This document shows positions 1,192-43,864 of a stretch of DNA of 64,000 bases, piece after piece. Under the pieces are notes generated by a model, which was given only the letters and a program-made list of their open reading frames with translations, was not told the DNA's origin and searched no databases. The DNA is from an uncultured archaeon (GTDB lineage Archaea; Aenigmatarchaeota; Aenigmatarchaeia; QMZP01; QMZT01): the NCBI GenBank assembly GCA_964441265.1, contig CAYYKJ010000007.1, positions 1 to 64,000 of the forward strand. The letters are read 5' to 3'. Each line of letters opens with the position of its first letter. Position 1 is the stretch's first letter. The position numbers and the translations under genes are program-made.

Positions 1192-2452
1192 TCCCATATT
1201 TCATGGAACTTGAATAAGCGGTCTTTGTGACGTAATGATTTTTTGATGAATAGATGTTGTCATTCTTGTCCACGTTTATTTCTGTCCTGCTGATTTCCTC
1301 GAAATCCTCGGTGATTAAGCTTTCTATCTTTCCGGTGAAGCTGTAGTTGACCCTGAGGATGTGGAGAGCTTGGTTTTTTGTTGAAGTGGCGAATCTCCAT
1401 TTTTCTTTGCCCGTCTTCCAGTCCAGAGCGTAAAGGTAACAGTCCCATCCACCGAACATTACCTCCCCTTCAAAAAATACTGCCGTGGACCATATGGTTC
1501 CGCTCGTCTGGAAGGACCACAACTCCTTCCCTGTATCTGCATTTAAGGCATAAAAATTCTTGTCTATCGATCCGAAATAAATTGTCCCTTCATGCATGAG
1601 CGGCTTGAAATTCTCCAGGATGTCTTTTGCCCTGAACCTCCAGAGCTCCTTCCCGTAAATGTCGATGCAGTAGAAGTTTTTGTCCCACGATCCGAGATAT
1701 ATCCTGTCCCCGTGAACCAATGGAGTTACGCCTGTCCCCTTACTCATCTTGAATTTCCACACCTCCCTCCCGGTCCTCGTGTCCAGTGCGTAAAGATAAC
1801 CGTCCCAGTTGGTGAAATACATGATACCGTCCCTGATCGGCTGCTGGTGATAATTGAACATGGAACCCCCTGTCTTGAACCTCCATAATTCTCTCCCCGT
1901 TTTCGCTTCCAGCGCATATACGTAGCCGTCGAATGATCCGATGTAAACGTTCTTCCCATCATACGTCGGTGTGCACCCCACCCTGTCGCCGGTTTTGAAT
2001 CTCCATTTCTCTTCACCGCTCTTCTTGTCCACCGCATATATGAACTCGTCCCACGATCCGAATATCACGAGGTCATCGCATACGGTCGGTGTTCCGGTCA
2101 CTCTTTTGCCAGTTTTAAATTTCCATATGAGATTCCCGTCACTTTCATCAACCGCGTAAAGATACCCGTCGAAAAAACCGGAATACACGATGCCATCGTC
2201 GATGACCGGATAAGAAGTGTCATTGACGTCGCCTGCCCGGAACCTCCAGATCTCTTTCCCCGTTCTCGCGTCCACGCAGTAAAGATGATAATCAGCACAC
2301 CCGAAGAAGAGCTTTCCGTTGTGGAGGGTCACGCCGGCGGATATGCTCCCGCCGTATCCCACGTCCCAGTCGTCCTTCTTGTTGAAACCGTATTCCGGCT
2401 CATCCACCACGAAATCGGCCATCTCCGTCTCGAAACCAGGCTTTATTATCAT
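1175..2452 (-). CDS. PQQ-like beta-propeller repeat protein (paralog family; C-terminal TKTAY tail)
   Basis: About seven repeats of the 'G.LYA(L/V)D..TG.E.WRF.TG' blade pattern. No signal peptide. 3' end overlaps the antiporter by 17 nt (convergent). Confidence 0.7.
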   Translation of the reverse strand: MIIKPGFETEMADFVVDEPEYGFNKKDDWDVGYGGSISAGVTLHNGKLFFGCADYHLYCVDARTGKEIWRFRAGDVNDTSYPVIDDGIVYSGFFDGYLYAVDESDGNLIWKFKTGKRVTGTPTVCDDLVIFGSWDEFIYAVDKKSGEEKWRFKTGDRVGCTPTYDGKNVYIGSFDGYVYALEAKTGRELWRFKTGGSMFNYHQQPIRDGIMYFTNWDGYLYALDTRTGREVWKFKMSKGTGVTPLVHGDRIYLGSWDKNFYCIDIYGKELWRFRAKDILENFKPLMHEGTIYFGSIDKNFYALNADTGKELWSFQTSGTIWSTAVFFEGEVMFGGWDCYLYALDWKTGKEKWRFATSTKNQALHILRVNYSFTGKIESLITEDFEEISRTEINVDKNDNIYSSKNHYVTKTAYSSSMKYGTNSAG

Positions 2453-6430: not shown

Positions 6431-7455
6431 GCTATAGATATAATTCGTGCGTATAGATGAGAGCTTGACACCGGCTCCCGGCGACGGGAGCGTTAAGTTT
6501 GAGGTAGGAGAATGCAAAACCCTTGTTGAAGCTCATATGAGGAGCTTTATGCGTAACGCCAATCCCAATTCCGGCTGATCCTGCCGGAGGCCACTGCTAT
6601 TCGGATTTGGCTAAGCCATGCTCGTTCTGGGTTAAACCAGAGCAAAGAGCTCAGTAACACGTAGTCAACCTGCCCTTGGGTCCGGACGAATCTCGGGAAA
6701 CTGAGGATAATGCCGGATAGGCAAAAAGATCTGGAAACGTGTGACAACTTGGATTTCAATCACGAGTTGTCCTTCGCCGGTTTGACTTTTTGTCCAACCA
6801 AGGATGGGACTGCGGCTGATTAGGTTGTTGCCAGGCTAAAATGGACTGACGTTCATTTCGAATGTCTTTCTTTAGATTCCTGGCAAGCCGATAATCAGTA
6901 CGGGCCTTGAGAGAGGAAGCCCGGAGATGGATTCTGAGACAAGAATCCAGGCCCTACGGGGTGCAGCAGGCGCGAAACTTTCCCAATGTGCGCAAGCATG
7001 AGGAAGAGATCCGGAGTGTTCTCCTTTTGGGGGAACTTTTGTCAAGTCCAAAAAAGATTGACGGCTGATTCTGTGAATCCATGCCGTCGCTCTGTGGTTA
7101 GCTTGGCGAATAAGTGGTGGGTAATACGGGTGCCAGCCGCCGCGGTAATACCCGAGCCACAAGTGGTGGCCACGTTTATTGGGCTTAAAGTGTTCGTAGC
7201 CGGTTCTGCCAGTCCTTGGTGAAATCATCTGGTAAACCAGGTGGCTTGCTGAGGATACTACAGGACTTGGGACCGGGAGAGGTCAAGGGTACTGACGGGG
7301 TAGGGGTAAAAAGCGATTGTTGACCCGGATTTTTCTGATCAGGTCAACCTTCCTTACATTCCTATAATCCTGTCAGGACCACCAGTGGCGAAGGCGCTTG
7401 ACTAGAACGGATCCGACGGTGAGGGACGAAAGCCAGGGGATCGAATGGGATTAGA

Positions 7456-7799
7456 TATGGGTTCAGGAAAAGGTATTTATTTCCAGTAATTAACTATAAA
7501 TAGATTAGAATGCCCAGTATTTCAAGTGATATTTGTAGGATGACTCTGAAGGACATATCAGTAAAAGGCAAGCGGAAATTGATTTCACAACAACTTCGAA
7601 GGAGATTTGCCAATATATACTTGAATATTTTAAAATAATTGGACTAAAAACAAGTGGCAGAGTCAGAAGCCGAAGAAAGAACAGGGAGTACGAAATAAGG
7701 ATATACGGCAAGGAAAATTTAATACTTTTTTCAAAACATGTCAAGATAAAACATCCTGATAAAATTGCCAGAATGAAGAAATTCCTGTCCCACTAAAAA
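7456..7799 (+). mobile_element. 16S intron 1 with decayed LAGLIDADG endonuclease remnant
   Basis: Inserted after GGATTAGATA and AT-rich. Two short out-of-frame reading frames resemble homing-endonuclease fragments (…EICQYILEYFKIIGLKTSGRV…EYEIRIYGKENLILF…). Confidence 0.45.
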
Positions 7800-8061
7800 C
7801 CCCAGTAGTCCTGGCTGTAAACGATACCCACTAGACATTAGGGATCTTACGTGGGTTCCTGGTGTCGCAGGAAAACCGCTAAGTGGGTCGCCTGGGAAGT
7901 ACGGTCGCAAGGCTGAAACTTAAGGGAATTGGCGGGGGAGCACACAAGGGGTGGAGGCTGCGGTTCAATTCGATTCAACGCGGGGAACCTTACCAGAGGC
8001 GAGGCAGGCACTCACTGTCACTAATGGTAAGGTTTATTAGCACCGTAATCAACAATTAAAC

Positions 8062-8640
8062 ATGAGGAACATAGCAGACCTCTCAAAAATAACACCGAAA
8101 GAAAGGGGATACCTGATTGGATTTTACATCGGAGACGGTAACATATTTGAACAAAATTCTTCAGGGATTTACAGGCTCAGATATTTTCTCGGCCTTAAAG
8201 AAAAACCAATACAGGAATCCCTTGTTGAAATATTGTCCAAGTTATTTGCGAATATAAGGACCTACGATGGACAGGGAAATACAATTGTAATTGAAATTCA
8301 TTCAAAACAGTTCATAACTTGGGTGAAAAACAACTGTACAAAGGATGGGATTAAAAACAAAAGCTCATCTAAAAGATTCAAAATTGGTGTTATAGAGGGT
8401 CTGATAGACAGCGATGGATATGTTCAAAGAAACTATGTTGAGATAACAACTGTCAATGAGAAACTGCGAAAAAATATTATTGAAATTTTGAGCGGTTTCA
8501 AAACAAAACCAAATGTTAGAAGTTATTCTTCTCCAATTTCCGGAAGAACCGGATGGAGAGTTGGTTTTTCTTTAAAAAACGGTGCTTTTAAACCTACCAA
8601 GTGGGTTCTTGCCCCTCAAACAGCAGAAAATGCTGCGTAA
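8062..8640 (+). CDS. LAGLIDADG homing endonuclease (double-motif) in 16S intron 2
   Basis: LIGFYIGDGNI and IEGLIDSDGYV motifs. Lies inside a 16S insertion (~8013-8679). Confidence 0.8.
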   Translation: MRNIADLSKITPKERGYLIGFYIGDGNIFEQNSSGIYRLRYFLGLKEKPIQESLVEILSKLFANIRTYDGQGNTIVIEIHSKQFITWVKNNCTKDGIKNKSSSKRFKIGVIEGLIDSDGYVQRNYVEITTVNEKLRKNIIEILSGFKTKPNVRSYSSPISGRTGWRVGFSLKNGAFKPTKWVLAPQTAENAA

Positions 8641-8795
8641 GGTTTACCATGAAGACATACCGTGCGCGCATCTGCAATGAAGGTCAGGTTGAAGGCCTTA
8701 CCAGACAAGCTGAGAAGTAGTGCATGGCCGTCGTCATTCCACGAGGGCAAAACCGGCATCTGATATTCTTCTTTTCGTCCGAAAAGCAGATAAGG

Positions 8796-9368
8796 ATGCC
8801 TCCCGAATTAAGAATCATGAAAACTGTTGGTTTTCAGAAAAAACAAATCAAATGCTCCGAAAATGATGCCTATATTTTAGGATTGTTTAGGGCAGACGGG
8901 TATACTTGGACAGGAACATTCGGAATAACTAATAGAAATCAGAAAATATTAGAAAAAGCTGCAAAAATCCTTTCAAAATTCGGCCAAAACAAATGGAGAA
9001 ATGATGAGAAAGGATTTTTCAGGGTTTGCATAACAAGTAGGCCCAGAAAAAGGGAATTTCTGAAGGCAATGGAAAATACAGAAAAATCATTAATTGATAA
9101 CAAATTAATGATTGCATCATATTTCGCAGGTAAATATGATGGAGATGGTTCTTATTGGAAAAAAACAAGACTGAGGTTCAAAATAACATACGGGAAACCT
9201 GAAAATATAGAATTTGATCAAAAGCTATTGCTCTCCGTTGGTATTTCAAGTAAAATAAGAAAATATAAAAATGCAAATGCATTTGACCTTGAAATATCAA
9301 GTGGTGATGCTTTAGCATTTTTTGACCTGATAAAAAATATTCGATTAAATGTCCTCTTGGAACGATAA
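8796..9368 (+). CDS. LAGLIDADG homing endonuclease (double-motif) in 16S intron 3
   Basis: ILGLFRADGYT and YFAGKYDGDGSY motifs. The ORF track starts at 8724 inside the exon; internal Met 8796 is more likely. Confidence 0.7.
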   Translation: MPPELRIMKTVGFQKKQIKCSENDAYILGLFRADGYTWTGTFGITNRNQKILEKAAKILSKFGQNKWRNDEKGFFRVCITSRPRKREFLKAMENTEKSLIDNKLMIASYFAGKYDGDGSYWKKTRLRFKITYGKPENIEFDQKLLLSVGISSKIRKYKNANAFDLEISSGDALAFFDLIKNIRLNVLLER

Positions 9369-9927
9369 AGTTCGTGCCGTGAGAGCTTGATGCTTTCATG
9401 TCATAAAGTGCCATGTTCCGGTAAAGGTGTCGTCTTAAGTGACGTAACGAACAAGACCCATACCTCATGTTGCTATCCAACTCTGTCGGAGCACTCATGA
9501 GGGACCGCTGGCGATAAGCCAGAGGAAGGTGTGGTCGACGGCAGGTCCGTATGCCCTGAATCCTCTGGGTAACACGCGGCCTACAATGGATGGGACAATG
9601 GGATGCCACTCCGAAAGGAGGAGCTAATCCTTCAAACCCATTCCTGGTCCGGATCGAGGGCTGCAACCCGCCCTCGTGAAGCCGAAATCCCTAGTAGTCG
9701 CTGGTTAGCAAGTGCGAAAGTCGCCGCGAAAGCGGTAGCGCTTTCGGGTCTAAAATCTAGCGTCGAATAAGTTCCTGCTCCTTGCACACACTGCCCGTCA
9801 AGCCATCCGAGTGGAGTTTTGGCGAGGTCTTCCCTTCGGGGAGGATCAAACCACAACTTTGCAAGGAGGGCTAACTCCAATAGTAATATTTTGGAGAACA
9901 ATTATTATTGGGGGCCTAAAGTCGTAA

Positions 9928-10067
9928 AATGGCTAGATGGGCAATTTGAGAAGTCGCAAAACGATTTCTATGACATCTATAACGTGTGTATAAACGGATG
10001 AAGCCTAGCTTGTAGCGCTTCATCAGACTCATGTATAGTTAGGAATATCATCTAGCTGTTCGATAAA
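9928..10067 (+). mobile_element. small ORF-less intron near 16S 3' end
   Basis: A ~140 nt insertion separates AAGTCGTAA from CAAGGTAGCCGTA. Confidence 0.4.
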
Positions 10068-10196
10068 CAAGGTAGCCGTACGGGAACGTGCGGCTGGATC
10101 ACCTCCTTATATATTTCGAATGACAACTTATTTCGAAAATTTAGGTTGTCTCTCGAAACATTCAACAGGGTGCATACTTCTCCTACCGCAAAAATC

Positions 10197-10402
10197 GGGC
10201 CGGTAGATCAACGGTGCGTTTCAAAAGGGAGCTGACATTTCACCCCACAACGAAACGTTTCGGGGTGTTGTGGGTCAATCGCTCCCGCTGCGTTAAAGAT
10301 CGCTGCCCTTGCAAGGCAGAGGCTTCGGGTTCAAAGCGACCCTTTTGCTCAAAGAAGAAACAGCTGATGCTTGCGGGGGTCGGGAAAATCCCGACCGGTC
10401 CA
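10197..10402 (+). tRNA. tRNA-Ala(TGC) in the 16S-23S spacer with two non-canonical introns (D-loop and T-loop)
   Basis: Acceptor GGGCCGG/CCGGTCC with G3:U70 and A73. D-stem GATC/GATC. Anticodon arm CTGCC-CTTGCAA-GGCAG. T-stem TCGGG/CCCGA with the T-loop TTCAAA...T split by an insertion. Confidence 0.6.
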
Positions 10403-12005
10403 TGAGAAATTGCATGGCGGGTCCGCCGGAGAGCAAATCCGGGCCGGGCTGGCCGCATTCGCGCACGTAAATATTTAAATATATAGTAACATATAATACA
10501 TGCTCTCTGCAGCCGTGCAGGGCTGGGAGGGCCAAATCGAATGCATTGGTTGACTATCAGACTGTTCAGAGTCGGTCACGCCCCGGTGACAGCGGGCTTG
10601 GTTGGCAGGCAGATAGTCGAGGCGACTCGGTATCTATTTTCTGGACAGTTTCGGGAATACCATGCTTGTAATGTTGAAATGAGGCTCGTTACTGCAAATA
10701 ACGGGCTGATTTGAGAAGGATGATGACCACTTTGACGGTCACGTGAGCACCGGCATAGCAGGGCGCGCCTCGGCGGGCCGTGTTACCGGCTGCGATGAAA
10801 GAGTGAACACCATTAGAGTCCTTTGATGATTCCATAGGCGAGTTGTCCCGACCACAAGGGTCTGTTACGCTGCATGGTGGCTGACTTGGCTCGGAAAACG
10901 AAGAGGGACGTGGCAAGCTGCGAAAAGCCCGGGGTAGGTGCAAGCAGCCTTTGAACCCGGGATTTCCTAATGGGACTTCCCAGCATTTGCTATTCGCAAT
11001 AGCGAAGGTTGACGGCCTGGATTGAAACATCTTATTAGGGCCAGGAAGAGAAAGCAATCGCGATTCCCTGAGTAAAGGCGATCGAAAGGGGAACAGGACA
11101 AACCGAATCCCCTATTGAGAGATAGGGGACATGTGGGGTTTGGACCTGCGCTCGGCCCAACTTCCCAACCCGAAGTGACCTGGAACGGTTCACGACAAAG
11201 GGTGAGAGTCCCGTAGGGATAAGGAAGAGGGTTGATATCAGGTATCCGGAGTACCGTTGGTTGGAAATCCAGCGGGAATGCGGGAGACACTAACTCCCAA
11301 TCCTAAACATAATCCGAGTCCGATAGCGTACTAGTACGGTGACGGAAAGTCGAAAAGCATCCTTAACAGGAGCTGAAAAGAGCCTAAAGCCATGTAGTTA
11401 TAGGTTGGTAAGGCACATGCTTGCATGTGTTTTGCCGTCCGTTTTGAAACACGCGGCAAGGAGTTTATCTCCGTGGCGAGGATAACGTGATGGTATCCAT
11501 AGCGAAAGCGAGAACCCCGCAGCTTGCGAGGGGGTCAGGTGTGAAAGCGCCTACAGTCACGGGGATAATACCTGAAGCCGGTCGATCTAGCCCTGGGCAG
11601 GGTGAAGTCTAGCGAAAGCTGGATGGAGGCCCGTTACCGTTGCTGAGATTCAAATCGCTCAGGTGACCTGGGGCTAGGAGTGAAAATGGGGTGACGGCCA
11701 GAATTCATCTGTTTAGGCCGTCGTTCCTTCAACGCTAATCGAGATCGGCAATAGCTGGTTCCTCTCTAAATGTATCTGAGTACAGCCTGGCCGGAGGTAG
11801 AATATGGGGTAAAGATACTGATTGCGTAACCAAGGATCGAAAGGTCCAGTTGTGCTGTCAAACTCAGAATCCATGTTCGCCGTAGAAGGCTGGAGTGGGG
11901 GTGCCGGGGTAAGCTCGGTATCCGAAAGGGAAAGAACCCAGACTGAAGTTAAGGTCCCTAAATGTTGTCTAATCGAAGAAAAGCGTCATCAACCATAAAC
12001 AATAG

Positions 12006-12037
<32 letters not shown>

Positions 12038-12404
12038 CGAGCGAAGGCTTGGATTTATCGGATTAAGCCTTCATTCGAAAGAGAGAGTGTGTAATAACTC
12101 ACCTATCTAGGTTGATGGCCTTGAAAATGGACGGGACTAAGGCAACTACCGATACTTTGGATCACGAAAGTGATAGCGTAGGGAGGTGTCCTGCTGGGGC
12201 AGAAGTTCTTCCGTAAGGGGGAATGGACCTTGCAGGAATAAGAATCTTGCTGATAGTAGCAGCACTAGTGGAGTGAGAATCTCCACCACCTAAAGGGCTA
12301 GGGTTCCTCAGCAACGATTAAAAGCTTGACGCTGAATGGTCAGCGTCGGTTTGTCGAATCAGCTGAGGGTTAGTCGGTCCTAAGGCGTCTCCTAACCGGA
12401 GGAT

Positions 12405-12436
<32 letters not shown>

Positions 12437-13090
12437 CATGGAAGTACGTGCGGCGACGCAAGCCCGGTTCCAGACTTTTCGGGATAGGCTGACCATTTCG
12501 ATGGTTAACCCGTTAAGCCTGCGGAGTACCGTAATGGTGAGAAGCAGGTGAAGCGGGGAATAGCCCGTGTATTCGGGTTTGGCTGAATCCTGGAAACCGT
12601 GAAAATGGAAACGGGAAGGATCTTTCATGTCCGTACCGAGAACCGTTACTGGTGACCCTTGCTGAAAAGGTTAAGGTGTATTAGGTTAAATTACCCTAGG
12701 GAATTCGGCAAATTAGCCCCGAATCTTTGGTATGAGGGGTGCCTAGTCCCTTGGCTCAGCCAAGAAGACTAGGTCGCAGTGACAAGGGGGGTCCGACTGT
12801 TTAACAAATGGGAAGCGCAGATTTAATGATTATCTGTTCTTTTCGTGCTTCAGTCGGAAATCGAACCCTCGGACAGGCCAAGTTAGTATGAAAGGACGTT
12901 TTTACAAATTTCAAACTTTCCGTTCTTCCCAGTTAAAAAACATAGGGGGCTGCTAGTCGGAAACGATTTGTATAGCTCCTGAGGCCTGCCCAGTGCGAGT
13001 GTGTCAAGCTGGACTTCAATCCAGTGAAGCCCTCGTAAACGGCGGCGGTAACTCTGACCGTTGACTTAGGCGGTCACAAAATTTGGCTAT

Positions 13091-13738
13091 ATGCGGGAAC
13101 TCCATAGTATTCCGGGTCCTGAGAAAGGAAAAATCCCGGAAACGATGACGGATAATCCGCAGGAAACTGTTTGCTTCATGGGGGTGGTTACCATGAAGAA
13201 AGTCGAACAAGGGTTTAGTAAACTCTTGAGAAAAAAGCGTTACCTGAGATTTTATATCTTGGGTTTCGTTGATGCCGAAGGTTGTTTTAGTGTGTCATTG
13301 AAGCAACAGAAAACGACGAGATTCGGCTGGGTATTGGATCCGTTATTCCAGGTAACTCAACACAAAAATAACAGGATTGTACTCGAAAAGATAAAAGGAG
13401 AATTGGGTTGCGGAAGGATAATTGATAAACCCGGTCAAAAAGATACACTGATATATTTGGTTGATAACCGAAGACAACTGAACGAGAAAATAATTCCCTT
13501 CTTTGAAAAGTACAGGCTTGTTTCGAAGGACAGTGATTTCCAGAAATTCAAGAGAATCGTCAGAGGACTTGAAAAAAAGGAACACGGCGAATTGGAATCT
13601 TTCTTGAAACTGATCAAAAAAGCCTTCGAAATGAATCTGGGAGGGAAACAAAGAAGATACAAACTCGAAGAAGTCTTGAAAAAATTGGGAAGCAGACAGA
13701 ATCCCCAGAGGCCATACGCCAGACACTCAAGTGAGTGA
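13091..13738 (+). CDS. LAGLIDADG homing endonuclease (single-motif) in 23S intron
   Basis: ILGFVDAEGCF motif; the ORF lies inside a 23S insertion. The true start may be an internal Met. Confidence 0.75.
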   Translation: MRELHSIPGPEKGKIPETMTDNPQETVCFMGVVTMKKVEQGFSKLLRKKRYLRFYILGFVDAEGCFSVSLKQQKTTRFGWVLDPLFQVTQHKNNRIVLEKIKGELGCGRIIDKPGQKDTLIYLVDNRRQLNEKIIPFFEKYRLVSKDSDFQKFKRIVRGLEKKEHGELESFLKLIKKAFEMNLGGKQRRYKLEEVLKKLGSRQNPQRPYARHSSE

Positions 13739-14398
13739 AGATATGGTCCGACTCTTACAGTAATGTAAGTAAGTTGCTTAAGGTAGCGTAGTCCCTTGCC
13801 GATTAATTGTCGGCCTGCATCAAGGGCTTAACGAGATCCCCGCTGTCCTGGGGTAATGCCTAGTGAAATTAATTGTCCAGTGCATATTCTGGAGACCTTC
13901 AGTGGGACGAGAAGACCCCATTGAGCTTTACTGCAGTCTACTGCTGTGATATGATAATGGTTGCACAGTGTAGGTGGGAGCGTCGAACCCGCGTCTTTGG
14001 GTGCGGGGAATGCGACAATGTAACACCACCCTACCGTTCTCATATTGCTTATCCTTCGGGAGACACCAGTTGATGGGCAGTTTGGCTGGGGCGGTACGCC
14101 TCTGATAAGGGATCAGAGGTGCCCTAAGTTCGGCTCATTCCGGTCAGAAATCGGAATTAGAGTGCAAGAGCAAAAGCCGGACTGATAGGATTCTGCAAAG
14201 TGAGGAATCCTAACGCGAAAGCGTGGTCTAGCGATCCGCTGTGTCTTTATTAGATGAAAGCCAGCTCTGACAGAAAAGTTACCATGGGGATAATCAACCA
14301 GAGAGTTGATAGGTTTTGAAAGCCATGTCAGGGGATATCTTTTCCTTTCTGTATTTTGAGACGAAAGTAAGATAAATCCCATTAATGAAATAATAAGC

Positions 14399-14953
14399 AT
14401 GGATTTGATTGAAAAGGGATTCGTTTTCGGTGCCAGCGAAGACGGAACTGTTTACCATAGACCTTCAAGAAATCAATATAACATAGAAATCGAGCAGAAA
14501 GTTCAAAAATGGCTTGAGATTGTGAAGAAAGCAGTGCAGAAAACATATAACAAAAACGTGAGGATAGCAAGGACTTCTAAAGGTTATTTCAGGTTGCTTG
14601 TTTATTCCAAAAAACTGCATAATGATCTCAAATCTTTCAGAAAGGATTATTCGAAAATCCTAACCGAAAACAAAGACTTCCAGACCGGCTTCCTTCGCGG
14701 ATTTTTTGATGCGGAGGGAACGGTCCACAACAAAAGATATTCGATTAGGGTGGCATCGAAGAATAAGCAAACAATCCTTGTAATCAAGAAAATGCTTAAT
14801 AAATTCAATATTAAAACCGGTAAAATTCATGCCGATAAGACGGCATATGTTTTGCCTCTGTACGGAAAAGATAATCTAGAAAGATTCGATTCCGTTGTCA
14901 GTTTTAGACATGAAGAAAAGAAAGAAAGACTTTCAAAACTTCTCTCTGGTTGA
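14399..14953 (+). CDS. LAGLIDADG homing endonuclease (single-motif) in 23S intron
   Basis: LRGFFDAEGTV motif; inserted after GGGGATAA in 23S domain V. Confidence 0.75.
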   Translation: MDLIEKGFVFGASEDGTVYHRPSRNQYNIEIEQKVQKWLEIVKKAVQKTYNKNVRIARTSKGYFRLLVYSKKLHNDLKSFRKDYSKILTENKDFQTGFLRGFFDAEGTVHNKRYSIRVASKNKQTILVIKKMLNKFNIKTGKIHADKTAYVLPLYGKDNLERFDSVVSFRHEEKKERLSKLLSG

Positions 14954-15525
14954 TCCCGAAAATGGAGTCGTGACGCGTGAGAGTCCATAGCGTCATAACT
15001 TGGTTAACTTTCTAAAAGGTCTTTGATTTCCAAGTTAGACATGGATATATCGACCGCGTTCGTTGCTTCTCCGCCGTCGGCTCGGCTCTTCCTGGACGTG
15101 CAGCAGCGTCCAAGGGTGGGGGTGTTCACCCATCAAAGAGCCACGTTAGCTGGGTTAAATACGGTGCGAGCCAGTATGGTCTATATCTACTGAAGGTGTC
15201 GGGAACCTGAGGGGAAGAAGCACTCAGTACGAAAGGAACAGTGCATCGTGGCCTCTGGTGTACCAGTTGTGTATACATCGCTGGGTAGCTATGCCATTGT
15301 GGATAAGGGCTGAAAGCATCTAAGCTCGAAGCCGCTCCCGAAAATAGGTTCCCACTCCTCAAACTGATTGGCAACAACCGGTGCGAGGGAAAGGATCCGG
15401 TATACGACCGGGTTGATAGAATCGGGGTGTAAGTACCGAGGCAACGAGGTATTCAGCCTACGATCACTAATACTCCAAATGGCCCTGGTTAAAGGGACAA
15501 CTCGCCGCTATTATTTTTTTATCAT

Positions 15526-18176: not shown

Positions 18177-19430
18177 ATGCAGCCGGAATACGGTTTCCAG
18201 GACTTCGAGATTGAACTGGAGGACATCCAGATAACCAAGACCAAGACCTTCGTCAGGGGTTTTGAGCCCACGGAAGGGGGATCGATCGCGTCCTCCCCGA
18301 AATTCTGGAAGGGTCTTGTTCATTTCGGGTCTTTCGACACGAACTGCTATGCCCTGACCCCTGACGGGGAGGAGGTTTGGAGGACCAAGCTGGGAGGCAT
18401 GGTCACCTGGGTGAATCCGGCTTTCTGGAACGGTTTCGTGATGTACGGGGCGTACGACAACAAATTCTACGCCCTCGACTCCATGACGGGGAAGATAATC
18501 TGGGAATTCCAGACAGGCGGTAAGATCGCCATGCAGGGATACGTTTCCGGCGACGTCGTTTACGTGGGGAGTTCGGACGGTTATGTCTATGCTCTGAGGA
18601 CATCTGACGGAAAGGAGCTCTGGAGGTTCAGGACAGGCGGGAAGGTGGCCACTCCACCGAGCGTCTACGGAGGCAGGGTATATTTCGGATCCTTCGACCA
18701 TAACATGTACTGCCTCTCCGAGGAGGGGAAGGAACTATGGCGGTTCAAGACCGGGGACGAGCTCCTGGCCGACAATCCCTATGAGGTTTACGACGGTGTC
18801 CTTTATTTCTCTTCCCTGGACTCCTACCTGTACGCGGTGGATGCGGAGACCGGCCGGCTCAAGTGGAAGTTCAAGACGGGGAAATACGGAAACACCTGCG
18901 CTCCCGTGCTCCACAGGGACAGGATATATCACGGCTGCAGGGACGGTATAGTCTACTGCCTTACCAGGGATGGGAAGGAGCTCTGGAGGTTCCAGGCGGA
19001 GAACCTGGTCGTCCAGGTGGGTATACACCGCGACAGGCTCTATTTCGGCGACGAGAGCGGGAACTTCTACTGCCTTTCCCTGGAAGGCAAGGAATTATGG
19101 AGATTCAAGACATCCGGGGCCGTGTTCACCGATCCATTATTCCACGAAGACCGGGTATGCATAGGATCTTTCGACTGCCACCTCTACTGCCTCTCCCTGG
19201 AAGGAAAGGAGCTCTGGAGGTTCCAGACCAGTTCGACGACCATGTCGGACATAGGGGAGCCCTACGAGATGTACGAGGCCGTGGTCTCCCAGGAGTCCGT
19301 GGACGAGGAAGGGTCCGGTGAAGAGGATAGCTATTCCGTCAACCTCTCCGGCGGAGGAATGGACGAATACGACGTGAAGAGCCAGTACGTGACCAAATCG
19401 GAATACGCCACCAAGAGCGAATACGCCTGA
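18177..19430 (+). CDS. PQQ-like beta-propeller repeat protein (paralog family; C-terminal YVTKSEYATKSEYA tail)
   Basis: Repeated 'YCL/YAL(D)..G.ELWRF.T' blades, an acidic N-terminus QPEYGFQDFEIE and a TKSEY-repeat C-terminus. Confidence 0.75.
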   Translation: MQPEYGFQDFEIELEDIQITKTKTFVRGFEPTEGGSIASSPKFWKGLVHFGSFDTNCYALTPDGEEVWRTKLGGMVTWVNPAFWNGFVMYGAYDNKFYALDSMTGKIIWEFQTGGKIAMQGYVSGDVVYVGSSDGYVYALRTSDGKELWRFRTGGKVATPPSVYGGRVYFGSFDHNMYCLSEEGKELWRFKTGDELLADNPYEVYDGVLYFSSLDSYLYAVDAETGRLKWKFKTGKYGNTCAPVLHRDRIYHGCRDGIVYCLTRDGKELWRFQAENLVVQVGIHRDRLYFGDESGNFYCLSLEGKELWRFKTSGAVFTDPLFHEDRVCIGSFDCHLYCLSLEGKELWRFQTSSTTMSDIGEPYEMYEAVVSQESVDEEGSGEEDSYSVNLSGGGMDEYDVKSQYVTKSEYATKSEYA

Positions 19431-19479: not shown

Positions 19480-19641
19480 ATGGCCAAGAAGAACAAGACA
19501 TTCATGCCCCAGAGCACGGCGGGGCTCATCAGGTATTTCGAGCAGTCAGAGGAATCGATCAAGCTCAGGCCGGAGCACATCGTGGGCATATGCGTCGTGA
19601 TAATAATCGTTGAGATTATGCTCAAGTTCGTGTTCATTTGA
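19480..19641 (+). CDS. secG: preprotein translocase subunit Sec61beta/SecG (53 aa; absent from ORF track)
   Basis: MAKKNKTFMPQSTAGLIRYFEQSEESIKLRPEHIVGICVVIIIVEIMLKFVFI; the GLxRYF(E/D) motif plus a C-terminal TM. Confidence 0.7.
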   Translation: MAKKNKTFMPQSTAGLIRYFEQSEESIKLRPEHIVGICVVIIIVEIMLKFVFI

Positions 19642-29582: not shown

Positions 29583-29900
29583 ATGAAAGATGGATTTTAC
29601 AGGGTTCTGATAAGTGCGACCACTAAACAGGAAGCAGAGCGGGTACTCAAGATCCTCCTGAGCAACAGACTGATAGCAGGAGGACTGATCACTCAGGGCC
29701 TCTCCAACCACTGGTGGAAGGGAAAGATCGAAGAGGAAACTTATTATAATCTGTCTGCTTTCACGATCAATCAGCACAAAGACGAAATAATCTCCGAGGT
29801 CGAAAAAATCCATCGTGATGAAACGCCAATAGTTGCCTTCTTCCATATCGATTATGCCAATGAAGGGTTTTTCGAATGGGTCAAGAAAAATGCGAAATAG
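29583..29900 (+). CDS. cutA: CutA-like divalent-cation tolerance protein
   Basis: ISATTKQEAERVLKILLSNRLIAGG…HWWKGKIEEETYYNLSAFT…. Confidence 0.6.
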   Translation: MKDGFYRVLISATTKQEAERVLKILLSNRLIAGGLITQGLSNHWWKGKIEEETYYNLSAFTINQHKDEIISEVEKIHRDETPIVAFFHIDYANEGFFEWVKKNAK

Positions 29901-29949
29901 GCTGCAGAAACCAAAACACTTAAATATTATTGTTTACTTATATATTCAT

Positions 29950-30537
29950 ATGGTTATTAAAGTAAACGACACTGATTTGAATGTGCTTAGTTTGTTCACG
30001 AAGGGATACGACAAGGGATATTACATCCGGGAGGTCGAAAAGCTTCTGAGCGTGAGTTCAAGAACTGCTCTTGTGACATTGGACAAGCTCGAAAAGAGGG
30101 GCATTCTTGACTCGAAAAGAAAAGGCAATATCAAGATTTACTCAATAAAAAAATCAAGTGTATCGAGGGAGTTTTTCCTTCTGACCGAACAATACAAAAA
30201 AATACAGTTCCTTGAAGGTAACCATCTGATCAAGGAAATCCTGGAAAAAGCAGACGATTTCATGCGAGGAATAGTCATCGTTTTTGGGAGTTATGCCAAA
30301 GGGACGCAAAAAGAAGATTCTGATCTGGACCTGTTTGTTGTAGGTGAATACGAAGAGGATAAAATAAAGGCGGTGGGGAAGAAATACGGGACTAATGTGA
30401 ATATCAAGAGTTATCCCGTGGAGGTCTTCAATGAAGAAATACATGATGATATTTTACTCAAAGAGGTCACAGAAAATCACATTTTAATAAAGGGTACAGA
30501 GGCATTTGTAAGGGGGGTTTTGAAATGGATCAGATAG
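29950..30537 (+). CDS. minimal nucleotidyltransferase (MNT) with N-terminal wHTH; antitoxin-like
   Basis: GSYAKGTQKEDSDLDLFVV pol-beta NTase signature. The ORF track starts at 29833; Met 29950 is more likely. Confidence 0.65.
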   Translation: MVIKVNDTDLNVLSLFTKGYDKGYYIREVEKLLSVSSRTALVTLDKLEKRGILDSKRKGNIKIYSIKKSSVSREFFLLTEQYKKIQFLEGNHLIKEILEKADDFMRGIVIVFGSYAKGTQKEDSDLDLFVVGEYEEDKIKAVGKKYGTNVNIKSYPVEVFNEEIHDDILLKEVTENHILIKGTEAFVRGVLKWIR

Positions 30538-30989
30538 AATGGTGCTTGCGCCAAAGGAAAGGGATTGAACTTGTAGATCCAAACGATAATCTCAGAGATG
30601 CTTACTTGGTCAAAGCCGAGGAAGCTTTGGGCACGTTGAGAACATCAGAAAGCAGGGACTGGCAATTGATCGCCGCGTATTATACAATTTACCATGGAAT
30701 CTATTCCCTGCTCATGGAAATTGGTGTGAAATGCGAGATCCATTCATGCACCATTGAATTTGCCAAAAGATTTCTGAGCGATTATTTTTCCCCTGGGGAT
30801 TTTGAACTGATCAACAAGGCATTCTCCGCCAGGATCGATTCTCAATATTATGTGAACAGGGAGGTTCCCAACCGGAATTATGATGTCATTGTCAAGAAGA
30901 CCCCGGGGTTTCTGGTCAAGTGCAAGAACATTGTAATTGATCAAAGAGAGATTGAGGGCATAAGAGACAAGATTTCTTCGGCGGAATAG
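30525..30989 (+). CDS. HEPN-domain protein (toxin-like partner of MNT)
   Basis: All alpha-helical, ~150 aa, 13-nt overlap with the MNT gene, R…H-containing helix. Confidence 0.5.
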   Translation: MDQIEWCLRQRKGIELVDPNDNLRDAYLVKAEEALGTLRTSESRDWQLIAAYYTIYHGIYSLLMEIGVKCEIHSCTIEFAKRFLSDYFSPGDFELINKAFSARIDSQYYVNREVPNRNYDVIVKKTPGFLVKCKNIVIDQREIEGIRDKISSAE

Positions 30990-31066: not shown

Positions 31067-31492
31067 TTATCTGTACTCGCTCCCTCCTGATCTGTATCCA
31101 CTCCCTCCGGAGGAGTACTCGCTCTTCGTCGTGTATTCGTTCTCGATGATCTGGATTTCGGGGTTTGGCCCGTAGTCTATGGGCTTTTCGTCCTCTACCG
31201 TCACCCCTTCTCCCGTTATGATCGTTACAAGCGCGACCTCGCTGTGGTCGATCACCTTCTCCTTCGAAGGGCTTCCTCCGGTCCTGAACTTCCATATCTC
31301 TTTTCCCGTTTTCGCGTCGAGGGCGTAGAAATAATAGTTGTCGCACCCGAAGTAAACGATGCCTTCGGATTCGCAGGGACGGCATGCAATGGTCCCGCCG
31401 TATTCATGCCTCCACCTGAGTCCGTAATTCTTCTGGAAAGCCGAATCGGTGATCTCTATGTCGAAATCCTCCGTGAAGTCGAATCCGTCCAT
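31067..31492 (-). CDS. truncated paralog of the PQQ-propeller family (N-terminal motif + one blade + TKSEY tail)
   Basis: DGFDFTEDFDIE N-terminus, a single YALDAKTGKEIWKFRTGG blade, and an ENEYTTKSEYSSGGSGYRSGGSEYR tail. Confidence 0.5.
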   Translation of the reverse strand: MDGFDFTEDFDIEITDSAFQKNYGLRWRHEYGGTIACRPCESEGIVYFGCDNYYFYALDAKTGKEIWKFRTGGSPSKEKVIDHSEVALVTIITGEGVTVEDEKPIDYGPNPEIQIIENEYTTKSEYSSGGSGYRSGGSEYR

Positions 31493-33873: not shown

Positions 33874-34965
33874 ATGCCTGAGATAAAGCAGATCCCGGAG
33901 GACTTCGTGGTCAGGGAGATCTTCCGGAAGAAGGAACCCGGGGAAGGAGGGAAGACCGAGGACAGCCACTACGTATGGTTCACGCTCAAGAAGACCAACT
34001 GGAGCCTTTTCCGGGCGGTCAAAATGATCTCAAGGAAGCTGGGGGTCTCCGTGAAGAGATTCGGATATGCCGGCACCAAGGACAAGAGGGCGGTGACATA
34101 CCAGAAGGTTTCTGTGTGGAACGTCCCGATGGAGCGGCTGGAGTCGGTCAGGATAAAGGACATCGAGCTATCCGGTTTCGAGGAGAGGAGGGAGAGGATA
34201 AATCTGGGGGACCTGAAAGGCAACCGCTTCGAGATAACGGTAAGGGACATCGGGAAAGGGAAAAGGAAGGGTATGGAGAAGAACCTGGAGAGGATAAAAA
34301 GGGAGGGCATGATCAATTTTTACGGAAAGCAGAGGTTCGGGGTGAGGGGCAACACACACCTGGTCGGAAAGGAGATAATAAGGGACCGTCTGAAGGAGGC
34401 GGTCTGGACGTACCTGACTCATGGGAGAGAAAGGGAAAGGAACGAAGACGCCAGGTCGTTCAGGGAGAACCTGGAAAAGGGCGGGGATTTCATGGCCGCC
34501 ATTAAGGAGTGCCCGGGTTTCCTGGGGACCGAGAAGACACTTTTGCAGCACCTCGCCCGGGAACCGAACGATTACGCGGGAGCGCTGAGGAGGATACCGA
34601 AAAAGCTCCGGAGGATATTCGTCCATGCCTACCAGTCATACCTGTGGAACGAGATCGCGAAGGTTACGGAAGAGAAAACAATACCTATTATAGGTTTCGA
34701 TACCGATCTCTCGAAATACGAGTCGGGAAAAGAAATGAAGAGAATCCTCGGAGGGGAGGGGATAAAACCGGGCGATTTCAGGCTCAAGTCAATGCCCGAG
34801 CTCTCCGCCGAGGGGAGCGAGAGGAAAAGGATAGTTAGACCGAAGAAACTCGAATGGTCCTTCGGGGAGGATGAAATCAACGAGGGAAAGCTGAAATGCC
34901 TGCTGAAGTTCGGGATACCCCCGGGCTCCTACGCAACGGTCCTCGTGGACGGGGTGCTGAAATGA
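33874..34965 (+). CDS. truD: tRNA pseudouridine synthase TruD/Pus7
   Basis: FGYAGTKDKRAVTYQ catalytic-Asp motif; N-terminal IPEDFVVREI. Confidence 0.8.
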   Translation: MPEIKQIPEDFVVREIFRKKEPGEGGKTEDSHYVWFTLKKTNWSLFRAVKMISRKLGVSVKRFGYAGTKDKRAVTYQKVSVWNVPMERLESVRIKDIELSGFEERRERINLGDLKGNRFEITVRDIGKGKRKGMEKNLERIKREGMINFYGKQRFGVRGNTHLVGKEIIRDRLKEAVWTYLTHGRERERNEDARSFRENLEKGGDFMAAIKECPGFLGTEKTLLQHLAREPNDYAGALRRIPKKLRRIFVHAYQSYLWNEIAKVTEEKTIPIIGFDTDLSKYESGKEMKRILGGEGIKPGDFRLKSMPELSAEGSERKRIVRPKKLEWSFGEDEINEGKLKCLLKFGIPPGSYATVLVDGVLK

Positions 34966-36059
34966 GGATAGGCAAATTCGCTCTGGTGGGGGGAAGCGGG
35001 ATACTGGTGAACGAGTTCTTCCTGTGGTTCTTCACGGAGATTTTCGGTTTCTATTATCTCGTTTCCTCTGCGATAGCCATAGAGCTGTCCATAATCTCCA
35101 ATTTCGTCCTGAACAATTACTGGACCTTCGGGGACAGGAAGAAAGACGTGGGATTTTTCAGGAGGCTGATCAAGTTCAATTCCGTCTCCCTGATCGGGAT
35201 GGTTTTCACCATATTGATACTGCACCTGTTGACGGAATATTTCGGGATTTACTACCTTATATCCAACCTCATCGCCATATCCATCGTCTTCGTATGGAAT
35301 TACTTCGCCAACAAGAGATGGACCTGGTCCCCGGGAATAAGGAGAATCCCCCCGGTGGCAAAGAATCCCATGGTTTCCATAGTGATCCCAACCTACAACG
35401 AGAGGGAGAACCTGGAACTGCTGATACCCGAGATATTCATGTCCCTCTCCGAGGGGGGCGTGAAGGGGGAGGTGATCGTCGTGGATGACGATTCCCCTGA
35501 CGGGACCGGGGAGACCGCGGAAAGGATGAAGAAGAGGTTCAGGATGAAGGTCATTCGCAGGGAGGGGAAGAAGGGTCTTTCCTCCGCGGTTCTGGAAGGT
35601 TTCGGGAAGGCGGAGGGGGAGATACTGGGGGTGATGGATGCCGATTTCTCTCACCCCCCGGGGGACATTCCGAGGCTGGTGAATCCAATAATCAGGAACC
35701 GGGCGGACATGACGGTGGGCAGCCGCAAGGTCCGCGGCGGAGGAACCGAAGGCTGGCCGCTGAAGAGGAAGATCATATCATGGGGGGCCGGCCTCCTGGC
35801 CAGGCCGCTGACCAGCGTGAGGGATCCCATGTCCGGTTTCTTCTTCCTCAAGAAGGGGGTCATCAGGGGATTGGACCTGAACCCCACCGGATACAAGATA
35901 GGTCTGGAGGTAATGGTCAAGGGAAGTAACGCGAGGATACTTGAGGTCCCCTTCGTTTTCCGGGAAAGGAAGTCCGGAGAGAGCAAGCTTACTTTCAGGG
36001 AGGATCTCCGGTATCTCTTCCATTTGATTAAATTATATTGGTACAAAGCGAATAGATAA
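34962..36059 (+). CDS. GtrA-domain + GT2 glycosyltransferase (dolichyl-phosphate hexose synthase-like)
   Basis: N-terminal GtrA-like 4-TM region. Then VSIVIPTYNERENL…VVDDDSPDGT…DADFSHPP…QEG-less DPM1-like GT2. Start overlaps the truD stop. Confidence 0.75.
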   Translation: MRIGKFALVGGSGILVNEFFLWFFTEIFGFYYLVSSAIAIELSIISNFVLNNYWTFGDRKKDVGFFRRLIKFNSVSLIGMVFTILILHLLTEYFGIYYLISNLIAISIVFVWNYFANKRWTWSPGIRRIPPVAKNPMVSIVIPTYNERENLELLIPEIFMSLSEGGVKGEVIVVDDDSPDGTGETAERMKKRFRMKVIRREGKKGLSSAVLEGFGKAEGEILGVMDADFSHPPGDIPRLVNPIIRNRADMTVGSRKVRGGGTEGWPLKRKIISWGAGLLARPLTSVRDPMSGFFFLKKGVIRGLDLNPTGYKIGLEVMVKGSNARILEVPFVFRERKSGESKLTFREDLRYLFHLIKLYWYKANR

Positions 36060-36061
36060 AC

Positions 36062-37414
36062 ATGAACGGAATCCTGAAGAGAAGGGAGCTGGCGGTTTTC
36101 GTTTTGTTCCTGATATGCTATTCGTATTTCTACCTGCCGGCCGGATGGAACGAGAACAGCAGATACGACCTTACCTATTCCATGGTGGAAAACGGGACCT
36201 TCCGGATAGGCAGTTACCATGAGAACACACATGACAAATCATTCCTTGACGGACATTACTATTCGGACAAGGCACCGGGCTCCTCCTTCTTCGGTGCTGT
36301 GGCCTATTCGATGCTCGCCCCTTTCTCGGGGCCGGGCCCGGTTGCGGAGTATTTCATCAGGTTCCTGGTGGTCTCCCTCCCCTCCGCCTTCCTCTGCGTG
36401 CTTATTTACAGGCTTTCCGGCGAGTTCACGAAAAGGGAGAGGTACAGGGTGCTCGTGACCCTCGCTTACGGTCTGGGTACGATGGCTTTCCCTTATTCTC
36501 TCATGTTCTACGGTCACCAGATAGCCAGCGTTCTCCTGTTCTCCTGCTTCTATCTCCTTTTCACCAGGAGGGGTAGGATAGGTGATTACGGTCTCTTCGC
36601 CTGCGGTCTGATGATGGGAGCCGCTTTCATGACCGAATTCCCCGCCGCAATCATTTCGGTCTTCTTGTTCTTCTATGCATTCGCGGTTCTTGAGAATAAG
36701 GAGAAGATTTCCTTCCTGATACTGGGGATCATACCTCCCCTCATAATCCTCGCGGCCTACAATTTCCTCTGTTTTGGGGGGATGTTTTCCACCGGATATT
36801 CGTACCTCGCCTACCAGGAGTCCGCTGAATTCCAGTCCGCGGGATTCCTGGGGGTGTCACTCCCCGATCCCCTCGTCCTGTTGGGCATACTGTTCTCCCC
36901 GTACAGAGGGCTGTTCTTCTTTTCCCCATTCCTGCTCCTCTGCATACCCGGATTCCACCGCTTCTACAGGAACAACCGCCTCAGGAAGGAGTTCTGGCTG
37001 TTCCTCCTCTCCGTTCTTTCGTTCATTCTGTGGAATGCCGGTTATTCGGTGTGGTGGGGAGGATGGTCTCCCGGCCCCAGGCACCTAGTGCCCGTGATAC
37101 CTTTCATGGTCGTTACAATAATGCTATATTCCAGGGAATTCTCCGGCTGGAAGGAAAAGTTCGCGGTTCTGCTGGCGGCGGCTTCCATCGTCCTTACCTT
37201 TTCGGTCACCGTTACCGATCCCTTCCTGCCGGAGGGGGCATACAATCCCCTCGTCCAGCACACGATTCCCCTTCTCGCCAGGGGCGATTTCGCGTTCAAC
37301 GCGGGCAACCTGCTCGGTCTGGGGGGATTGCTTTCCCTGGTCCCCCTGCTGGCTGCCTTGGCGGTAATCCTGTGGATTCTTTCAGGAAGGAGGTTCCTGC
37401 AATGGATATCATAA
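36062..37414 (+). CDS. GT-C fold membrane glycosyltransferase (ArnT/PMT-like)
   Basis: ~11 TM, an N-terminal luminal loop with YSDKAPG, and an aromatic-rich architecture. Confidence 0.55.
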   Translation: MNGILKRRELAVFVLFLICYSYFYLPAGWNENSRYDLTYSMVENGTFRIGSYHENTHDKSFLDGHYYSDKAPGSSFFGAVAYSMLAPFSGPGPVAEYFIRFLVVSLPSAFLCVLIYRLSGEFTKRERYRVLVTLAYGLGTMAFPYSLMFYGHQIASVLLFSCFYLLFTRRGRIGDYGLFACGLMMGAAFMTEFPAAIISVFLFFYAFAVLENKEKISFLILGIIPPLIILAAYNFLCFGGMFSTGYSYLAYQESAEFQSAGFLGVSLPDPLVLLGILFSPYRGLFFFSPFLLLCIPGFHRFYRNNRLRKEFWLFLLSVLSFILWNAGYSVWWGGWSPGPRHLVPVIPFMVVTIMLYSREFSGWKEKFAVLLAAASIVLTFSVTVTDPFLPEGAYNPLVQHTIPLLARGDFAFNAGNLLGLGGLLSLVPLLAALAVILWILSGRRFLQWIS

Positions 37415-40351: not shown

Positions 40352-40400
40352 GTTGAAATAGTTCCGGCAGTATTTAAATTCAGGTATTCCTATTATAAAA

Positions 40401-41807: not shown

Positions 41808-41846
41808 CTTTTTAAGAATTTAATCCTTAAAATCCAAAGAATAAAC

Positions 41847-43756: not shown

Positions 43757-43864
43757 ATCCGTTTCCTGCGGAGTTCTGATATACGTACCCCTGTCTGGGC
43801 ATCGAAAATAAAAAGAAAAAGGGGTAACGTAGGCGCAATGCCTACGTTTTATTATTCAACGGAT

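Follow-up and report, generated by a model that had tools for sequence, protein, structure and literature searches.

Four open reading frames (ORFs) in a 64,000-nt stretch of DNA from a DPANN archaeon of the Aenigmatarchaeota (the window, by which we mean the whole stretch) encode beta-propellers of the pyrroloquinoline quinone (PQQ)-like type with similar ends: a short acidic N-terminal segment, here called the head, and a tyrosine-rich C-terminal tail. What are these ends for? The initial annotation of the window saw in them the mark of a shared partner, such as a docking, modification or sorting system. We find that the fold is a known one, but that the terminal motifs and the expanded, DPANN-specific paralog family that carries them appear, from sequence comparison, to be undescribed. 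A literature search for PQQ, propeller and BamB proteins of Aenigmarchaeota/Aenigmatarchaeota and for WD40 expansion in DPANN archaea yielded no description of the family, and a 2026 preprint on six-bladed PQQ enzymes deals with a different one. With a probability of about one half, we read the proteins as non-enzymatic scaffold or receptor propellers whose termini would serve docking or assembly as short linear motifs particular to the family.

The four ORFs were found at the coordinates and on the strands previously assigned to them. Two are full-length: a protein of 417 amino acids (aa) at 18177-19430 (plus strand) and one of 425 aa at 1175-2452 (minus strand), with GAGGT ~8 nt upstream of its first ATG. 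The third, at 31067-31492 (minus strand), is a 141-aa 'mini' member with a head, one blade and a degenerate tail; the fourth, at 63473-64000 (plus strand), is cut by the window end after 176 visible aa. The propeller repeat is common to all four, and all match Pfam PQQ_2 / Beta-prop_ACSF4. A hidden Markov model (HMM) of the family, run against the six-frame translation of the window, recovered four copies and zero further fragments (E = 6.7e-146 for the 425-aa protein and 6.7e-51 for the fourth copy). The 417-aa protein scores 197.5 bits against PF13570 (gathering cut-off 133) and 196.5 bits against PF13360 (cut-off 27.6); the 425-aa protein reaches 228.4 and 166.5 bits, both above the cut-offs. 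The fourth copy passes PF13360 with 66.4 bits, and the 141-aa ORF stays below every such cut-off.

An out-of-frame or annotation artefact, which could have produced such tails, is ruled out. The C-termini of the 417-, 425- and 141-aa proteins, YVTKSEYATKSEYA, NIYSSKNHYVTKTAYSSSMKYGTNSAG and EYTTKSEYSSGGSGYRSGGSEYR, each run to the stop codon in the propeller frame with no earlier stop. The tail of the fourth copy lies beyond the window end. Its counterpart in the closest related metagenome-assembled genome (MAG; L001:11273-12535, 55% identical over the visible part) has the same start, MDDMFMAT...GFELGDFA, and ends ...SQYSVKSEYVFRSEYA; the truncated copy, therefore, most likely has a tail too.

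Both ends were examined in a family alignment of 111 sequences (~40% identity). The head consensus is M-D-F-G-F-E-G-F-x(2-4)-D-F-x-V-E-L-E-D-x-E-V-K-K or, written with the spacer filled in, M-D-F-G-F-E-G-F-E-S-S-D-F-D-V-E-L-E-D-x-E-V-K-K. The tail usually consists of four [S/T]-[E/D]-Y hexads with the consensus S (75%), E/D (77%), Y (99%), x, x, x. In the 417-aa protein, the acidic and aromatic head, predicted to be disordered, reads MQPEYGFQDFEIELE (residues 1-15; 18177-18221, plus strand), and the hexad tail reads DEYDVKSQYVTKSEYATKSEYA (residues 396-417; 19362-19427, plus strand) with tyrosines at 398, 404, 410 and 416. The tail of the 425-aa protein (1178-1258, minus strand) has four tyrosines at a spacing of six, its acidic residues being mostly lost. 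Tyr404, Tyr410 and Tyr416 are invariant in the alignment, Tyr398 and Tyr386 nearly so, and F10 and R27 are conserved. The Tyr-rich tail is thus conserved as the initial annotation had claimed. Its other claim, of a shared acidic N-terminal motif, needs rewording: a family-wide pattern GF...DF.[VI]E[LIVM]E[DE].x[VI][KR]K exists, but the (E/Q)PEYGF segments of the 417- and 425-aa proteins occupy non-equivalent alignment positions.

Conservation per column is highest in the tail (2.54 bits, compared with 2.32 in the propeller and 2.27 in the head). Of the 554 cells in its Tyr columns, 545 are Tyr and 1 is Phe, a Phe share of 0.18% against 9% in Tyr-majority propeller columns (Fisher p = 2e-21). 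Codons at conserved positions are mixed (Tyr TAC 348 / TAT 256; Ser TCN 280 / AGY 224). Since they vary freely, selection is placed at the level of the protein or peptide, and conservation of the tail at the nucleotide level was rejected. The alignment supports strong selection on the terminal motifs.

Composition was controlled for with profiles of 45 residues at each terminus, from which the window proteins and the close ortholog were left out; each score was compared with the best among 1000 composition-preserving shuffles. The 417-aa protein scored 40.5 bits at the N-terminus and 37.4 at the C-terminus (best shuffles 7.1 and 14.4), and the 425-aa protein 17.5 and 16.8 bits (6.4 and 11.8). 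The 141-aa protein also beat all shuffles, marginally (11.6 vs 8.4 and 10.8 vs 10.0 bits). The N-terminus of the fourth copy matched its profile weakly at 3.5 bits, with 39 of 1000 shuffles equal or better; the full-length profile aligns this copy from profile position 2. The proposed likeness of the termini beyond mere composition therefore stands comfortably for both ends of the two full-length proteins and narrowly for the mini, but is weak for the N-terminus of the fourth copy.

The variation that the tail does tolerate was followed in related genomes. A search with 11 family sequences gave 556 relatives in GTDB species genomes, and the best 80 loci are nearly all from Aenigmatarchaeota. 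The counts below come from fetched Aenigmatarchaeota loci (0.96 Mb) and, where 80 sources are named, from 79 fetched loci and the window itself. Three tail classes could be distinguished, and the Tyr spacing is kept in all. Class A, to which the full-length copies of the window belong, has no more than a few residues beyond the fourth Tyr (E-Y-A, E-Y-G or E-Y-K). Class B, which accounts for most full-size copies (108 of 171 in the fetched loci), continues with F-V-M-F-E...W-T-S-D and ~30 residues. Class C reads A-Y-K-S-R-I-T-Y-Q-V-S-T-Q-Y-x-E-K-G-K-Y-Q-V-D-S-D-E-E-A-F/L, with the tyrosines kept and the S-[E/D] context gone. In classes B and C, 9-35 residues follow the last Tyr. Most MAGs contain class A and class B together. 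A strict four-Tyr run is missing from 27 of the 171 copies, among them the closest ortholog, P0001 (Phe-Tyr-Tyr-Tyr).

That Tyr is almost never replaced by Phe suggests a role for the hydroxyl, either in hydrogen-bonded recognition or in covalent modification. If the latter, the conserved Tyr, along with Ser at -2, might be phosphorylated, sulfated, cross-linked or otherwise modified so as to control function. The tail, being predicted disordered, would be accessible, and the frequencies of Ser at -2 and of Glu/Asp at -1 fit a substrate site. We nevertheless regard such modification as distinctly unlikely to be the explanation. No kinase, sulfotransferase, radical-SAM or other modifying enzyme recurs near the family genes or occurs among the window genes scanned; class C retains the tyrosines without their S-[E/D] context; and two structural tyrosines of the propeller, Y178 and Y138, are equally strict.

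Are the motifs confined to this family? Among the fetched loci, the tail was found on 175 of 182 full-size propeller ORFs and the head on 169 of 182; none of the ~6,600 other ORFs in these 0.96 Mb carried either. A tail profile searched against 1.84 billion representative proteins gave 52 matches at E <= 1e-3, comprising full-length members, contig-edge fragments, family 'mini' proteins and two unrelated low-complexity proteins. One unrelated protein, P0165 (214 aa), has about ten terminal hexads of the K-S-E-Y-R-G type with the same period-6 Tyr pattern, which may be convergent low complexity; its N-terminal part, judged by eye, appears YhbY/CRM-like. The head-profile search returned six short fragments or frameshifted family remnants and is weakly informative, as full-length members were not listed either. 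Isolated heads and tails gave nothing relevant against Pfam and NCBIfam at E <= 10, full-length scans of five homologs at the same threshold left the termini covered by no family, and head and tail profiles met PDB sequences with chance matches at E >= 0.8 or none. A sorting tag would be expected on unrelated cargo families and with a hydrophobic segment. The occurrence of both termini on this propeller family only, as far as these searches reach, argues against a general sorting signal, and no hydrophobic segment is present; the sorting part of the earlier proposal is weakened.

The proteins look cytoplasmic from their sequences. In the four window proteins, the first 20 residues add up to a net charge of -5 to -7 (median -7 over 113 sequences checked), mean hydropathy over the first 30 residues lies between -0.3 and -0.95, and the highest 19-residue Kyte-Doolittle mean is 0.74-1.11. 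No Sec, Tat or class III signal, with its positive n-region and hydrophobic h-region, is present. As we used the longest possible ORFs and Met1 starts 96 of 111 family sequences, the N-termini are not truncated signal peptides. The absence of signal peptides and transmembrane segments, noted previously, is thereby borne out: the N-termini are acidic and hydropathy is far from membrane level.

DPANN archaea depend on host contact, and most characterised relatives of the fold (BamB, YxaL, quinoprotein dehydrogenases) are extracytoplasmic. Could the termini then route the propellers outside the cell, or anchor them at a host-contact site, by a non-classical path? PQQ propellers, HVO_1020 / Hlac_2402, have been reported from haloarchaeal extracellular-vesicle proteomes, together with a vesicle GTPase family described as conserved in DPANN (bioRxiv 10.1101/2023.03.03.530948; PMC10927574). 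These proteins and ours are both archaeal PQQ-repeat propellers, likened by description only, and no small GTPase was found among the window genes scanned. With motifs restricted to one protein family, a strongly acidic N-terminus, no hydrophobic segment and no linked transporter or sortase gene, export of this kind seems improbable to us.

Two AlphaFold2 (AF2) models, one of the 417-aa protein and one of a long-tailed class-B relative, with strands taken from DSSP, both show an eight-bladed propeller (mean predicted local distance difference test score, pLDDT, 89.5 and 83.3, respectively). In the 417-aa protein, the blades occupy residues 34-352 (18276-19232, plus strand). Besides the 32 blade strands, each model has one extra N-terminal and one extra C-terminal strand, which lie in the 417-aa protein at residues 16-21 (family ...EVKK; 18222-18239, plus strand), outside the eight blades, and at residues 366-371 (family F-E-x-x-V-K-K; 19272-19289, plus strand); the equivalents in the class-B model are 18-23 and 370-375. 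Since a closed propeller brings its first and last blades together, the extra strands probably pair and clasp the ring, and the head and tail would leave the fold side by side. In both models, pLDDT is below 50 in the first 12-16 residues and after residue ~378; for the 417-aa protein, this applies to residues 2-4 and 6-12, with ~40 in the tail. The termini, which the initial annotation had singled out for structure prediction, are thus predicted to be disordered at either end of a confidently predicted propeller.

Structural neighbours of the fold include designed eight-blade proteins, tetrathionate hydrolase, YxaL, BamB and eukaryotic WD40 scaffolds with eight blades, such as Rsa4/Notchless, TBL1XR1 and Fbw7/Cdc4. 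Conservation in the propeller falls on the Gly, Trp, Tyr and Asp that shape the repeat and on the blade-specific TGKYGN, SRDG, SEDGN and SWDCH, with no evident likeness to a quinoprotein active site. Variation is greatest in the innermost strand A (1.43 bits) and the A-B loop (1.68 bits), from which we propose that the propeller may provide paralog-specific recognition.

The models also bear on the idea that head and tail act in cis, folding back to plug the channel or cover an edge strand of their own propeller as an autoinhibitory switch, much like the TolB N-terminus. Both ends emerge where the ring closes, next to the two extra strands, which are predicted with confidence, and the conserved features on the surface of blades 5-8 (the four motifs just named) are family-specific. 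On the other hand, the termini stay at pLDDT ~35-45 despite deep alignments, and the head is unchanged while the tail shifts between classes A, B and C. We would give such a plug little chance.

The family is far larger than the window suggests. In all, 3885 homologs were found, the top 120 of them ~415-460 aa long, and each of these 120 that bears a name is named from Aenigmarchaeota; the best is P0001, an ortholog 75% identical to the 417-aa protein, from a 'Candidatus Aenigmarchaeota' MAG. Two or more copies are present in half of the 80 sources, with 10 in one, and several MAGs have at least 12-22 distinct copies in the fetched stretches. These copy counts are lower bounds, and duplicated contigs inside MAGs may contribute to them. 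Two assemblies in the set are complete or near-complete (1.05 and 1.1 Mb). The earlier suggestion of an expanded paralogous family, made from four copies, is therefore well founded. Genes of the family also form head-to-tail tandem arrays of up to 7-10 class-B genes with almost no intergenic space (seven in L070), which suggests operon-like co-expression of paralogs. In the two closest genomes, the 417-aa ortholog pair is 74.6% identical and the neighbouring housekeeping genes are 45-88% identical. As the former value falls within the range of the latter, it indicates ordinary purifying selection and is not an arms-race signature.

The 141-aa ORF departs from this picture. The family HMM covers it over profile positions 5-88 only, with a weak match in the tail, where the Tyr spacing drifts to 7. 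Its single, identical copy (P0166) is from another assembly of the same organism; no ortholog with the same architecture was found, and the protein forms a singleton cluster. The gene has promoter-like and terminator-like flanks, with a TATA-like AAATTTATTT upstream and an A/T-rich run (AAAAAAAA ... TTTTTATT) after the stop. Other metagenomes contain minis too, in which one to three blades stand between the head and an intact tail (P0122, P0124, P0132, P0145 and P0162), and the three of them that were looked up (P0122, P0124 and P0145) are each a singleton cluster. In P0122, the start of blade 1 is joined to the end of blade 8 at the repeated TG.E.WRF motif to give a single blade. Such a junction at a repeat is as expected from unequal recombination between blades, and events of this type are in frame by construction. 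The minis thus look like in-frame deletions through recombination between blade repeats. The 141-aa ORF, described earlier as a paralog, does carry the family head and tail, marginally above shuffles; judging by its sequence, it is a probable recent, lineage-specific, one-blade in-frame deletion derivative with no ortholog.

Directly adjoining this mini gene, at 29833-30989, is an NTP_transf_2 / Polbeta nucleotidyltransferase gene that overlaps by a few bases with a 154-aa ORF without Pfam match, a layout like that of a minimal nucleotidyltransferase/HEPN-type pair.

The minis and the regularity of the tail raise the prospect of self-assembly, in which the four-Tyr tail, the FG-like acidic head or both would bind the propeller, or the termini of other members of the family, to form homo- or hetero-oligomers, lattices or condensates, for example a coat beneath the membrane. 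The number and four-fold, six-residue spacing of the tyrosines are fixed, which suggests a periodic binding surface, and the same termini are found on many, probably co-expressed, paralogs. In its tail, the 141-aa protein is similar to Tyr-rich low-complexity 'sticker' sequences (SGGSGYRSGGSEY), and one-blade minis with both ends preserved turn up repeatedly in other metagenomes. These minis are singletons, however, and so give no sign of selective retention; nothing is docked in the AF2 monomer models; and the comparison of hexad spacing (~20 A if extended) with inter-blade distance is a geometric argument only. We consider self-assembly possible, if unlikely. Self-assembly and the other alternatives (tyrosine modification, non-classical export and a plug in cis) are not all mutually exclusive.

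The initial annotation had put the family forward as a candidate for a new 'system'. In the 80 loci, however, no modifying enzyme, docking partner or further gene of any kind is found repeatedly beside the family genes. The best non-family neighbour clusters, in 11 of 80 loci each, are a RecA/KaiC-like ATPase and a flap-endonuclease-like ORF (named by eye), and both reflect synteny. In the closest relative, the order HTH (helix-turn-helix) protein, 417-aa propeller, Sec61beta, metallo-beta-lactamase fold, NUDIX is retained, with a second propeller gene in tandem between the propeller and Sec61beta; the window counterpart of this second gene is 44 kb away, at 63473. We see here one protein family whose terminal motifs are its own, and no multi-gene system that could be demonstrated. 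The notion of a shared partner survives in part: the motifs are strongly selected, but sorting is weakened as their purpose, and no partner or modifying enzyme recurs nearby.

On the reading that we favour, a scaffold or receptor propeller with docking termini, the extra strands would clasp the ring so that both disordered segments exit at the same point. The acidic, Phe-rich head (net charge about -7 over 20 residues) and the tail, with Tyr at i, i+6, i+12 and i+18, usually inside [S/T]-[E/D]-Y, would be private short linear motifs that become ordered only once bound, and would tether each paralog to one common partner or to fellow family members. The propeller would supply a paralog-specific recognition surface, so that a constant handle is combined with a variable propeller, by analogy with adaptors and substrate receptors. 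The 141-aa mini, if it has any function, might compete for the same partner.

Several observations weigh against this reading. Neither terminus shows any sign of a bound conformation in the AlphaFold models. Beyond synteny, no gene recurs beside family members in the 80 loci, and none stands out as a partner. Variable inner strands and loops are normal in any propeller and are no proof of receptor diversification. The cytoplasmic placement, in the Aenigmatarchaeota lineage, is based solely on the absence of known signals. Finally, searches with short motifs have limited sensitivity (true family tails number in the thousands, yet only 52 came in at E <= 1e-3), and divergent copies on other proteins could therefore have been missed.

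A bolder extension is that an undescribed machinery for assembly or export, specific to DPANN archaea, grips these proteins by the head and four-Tyr tail. The paralogs might, for example, polymerise into a coat or lattice, or reach the host-contact site or vesicles by a Sec-free route, with the propellers as interchangeable recognition modules. We think this doubtful. If it were true, 12-22 copies in ~1-Mb genomes would mark a central, so far unseen part of Aenigmatarchaeota cell biology.

Aenigmatarchaeota are uncultivated DPANN archaea, and the family fills 1-2% of the gene count in their genomes; this share, together with purifying selection, implies that it must matter to them. The public labels 'BamB' and 'PQQ-binding' both fail for it, and the terminal motifs are precise, cheap search handles by which annotators could split it from generic PQQ repeats. 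Should the termini be docking or assembly signals, they would represent a rare documented example, in archaea, of a paralog family organised by conserved short linear motifs.

The remainder of the window is archaeal housekeeping: prolyl-tRNA synthetase, ribosomal proteins, an EF-2-like protein, eIF-6, Sec61beta and a ribosomal RNA (rRNA) operon, accompanied by an S-layer protein and a glycosyltransferase cluster. The Sec61beta gene (53 aa, 19480-19641; Pfam E = 5e-12) lies between the 417-aa propeller gene and the metallo-beta-lactamase-fold gene. The rRNA operon (6568-15490) has large insertions, the small-subunit (SSU) gene spanning 3350 nt (model 1478 nt) and the large-subunit (LSU) gene 4638 nt (model 2987 nt). 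LAGLIDADG homing-endonuclease ORFs are located at 8062-8640 and 8724-9368 in the SSU and at 13091-13738 and 14399-14953 in the LSU, which indicates multiple rRNA introns carrying endonuclease genes. An envelope cluster at 34896-46228 contains GT2 glycosyltransferases (one fused to a GtrA-like membrane domain), PMT_2-like and GT87-like membrane glycosyltransferases and two ORFs without assignment (450 and 521 aa). These genes are followed by one for an S-layer protein of 787 aa (S_layer_C; 43865-46228, minus strand), and a prepilin-peptidase-like gene is found at 46438-47292.

How does the family compare with known systems? Membership in the PQQ-like propeller superfamily is clear from the Pfam scores of the 417-aa protein, the 425-aa protein and the fourth copy, and from the eight four-stranded blades of the closed models. 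Source annotations go further and name 'outer membrane protein assembly factor BamB' or 'PQQ-binding-like beta-propeller repeat protein'. Were they correct, these would be BamB-like assembly factors or PQQ-dependent dehydrogenases with irrelevant low-complexity ends. The fold is indeed similar, but scores against the NCBIfam equivalogs fall far short. For BamB, the 417-aa protein reaches 157.4 against TIGR03300 (cut-off 285.2) and 101.8 against PRK11138 (423), and the 425-aa protein 164.6 and 129.2. For PQQ dehydrogenases, the scores are 78.2 against the alcohol dehydrogenase model TIGR03075 (480.05) and 31.8 against TIGR03074 (832.65), and the proteins have ~420 aa where the enzymes have 550-780. 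The acidic N-terminus, with no hydrophobic stretch, offers neither a Sec signal nor a lipoprotein signal peptide with lipobox Cys; to our knowledge, archaea lack an outer membrane and BamA; and the supposedly irrelevant tails are the best-conserved part of the protein. We put next to no weight on these labels.

Known peptide signals also fit poorly. A PGF-CTERM-type tag was rejected: no tail class has a hydrophobic segment, and, two low-complexity outliers apart, the tag was not found on unrelated families in the 0.96 Mb of loci or the 1.84 billion proteins. In an HbYX tail, the residue before the last Tyr would be hydrophobic, and here it is Glu/Asp; classes B and C, moreover, extend 9-35 residues beyond. 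PGF-CTERM and HbYX are likewise extreme C-terminal motifs, and class A ends in Tyr-X, but our tails have no transmembrane helix or basic cluster and are not shared among cargo families. The Type VII signal YxxxD/E is excluded by the position of the acid, at +5 and not +4, and a RiPP (ribosomally synthesised and post-translationally modified peptide) precursor by the size (420 aa) and copy number (12-22) of a family with no linked maturase.

The closest known proteins are those of PF13360/PF13570, such as BamB, YxaL and tetrathionate hydrolase. The Aenigmatarchaeota family shares their fold, has no signal peptide, lipobox or catalytic insertions, and adds the N- and C-terminal strands, the conserved disordered head and the Tyr-hexad tail. 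From generic PQQ-like repeat proteins it differs in being archaeal (DPANN) and massively paralogous. TolB, a periplasmic, six-bladed, single-copy protein with a different motif, has a disordered N-terminal signalling segment; the likeness is one of analogy, a folded propeller with a short conserved disordered terminus contacting a partner, and no sequence relationship is claimed. Likewise, the resemblance to F-box/WD40 receptors (Fbw7, Cdc4) and eight-bladed scaffolds (Rsa4/Notchless, TBL1XR1) would be in working logic and not in membership. Those receptors have an F-box or a recognised adaptor domain and a ubiquitin-ligase-like hub, none of which was found here; in the Aenigmatarchaeota family, the handles would instead be disordered peptides.

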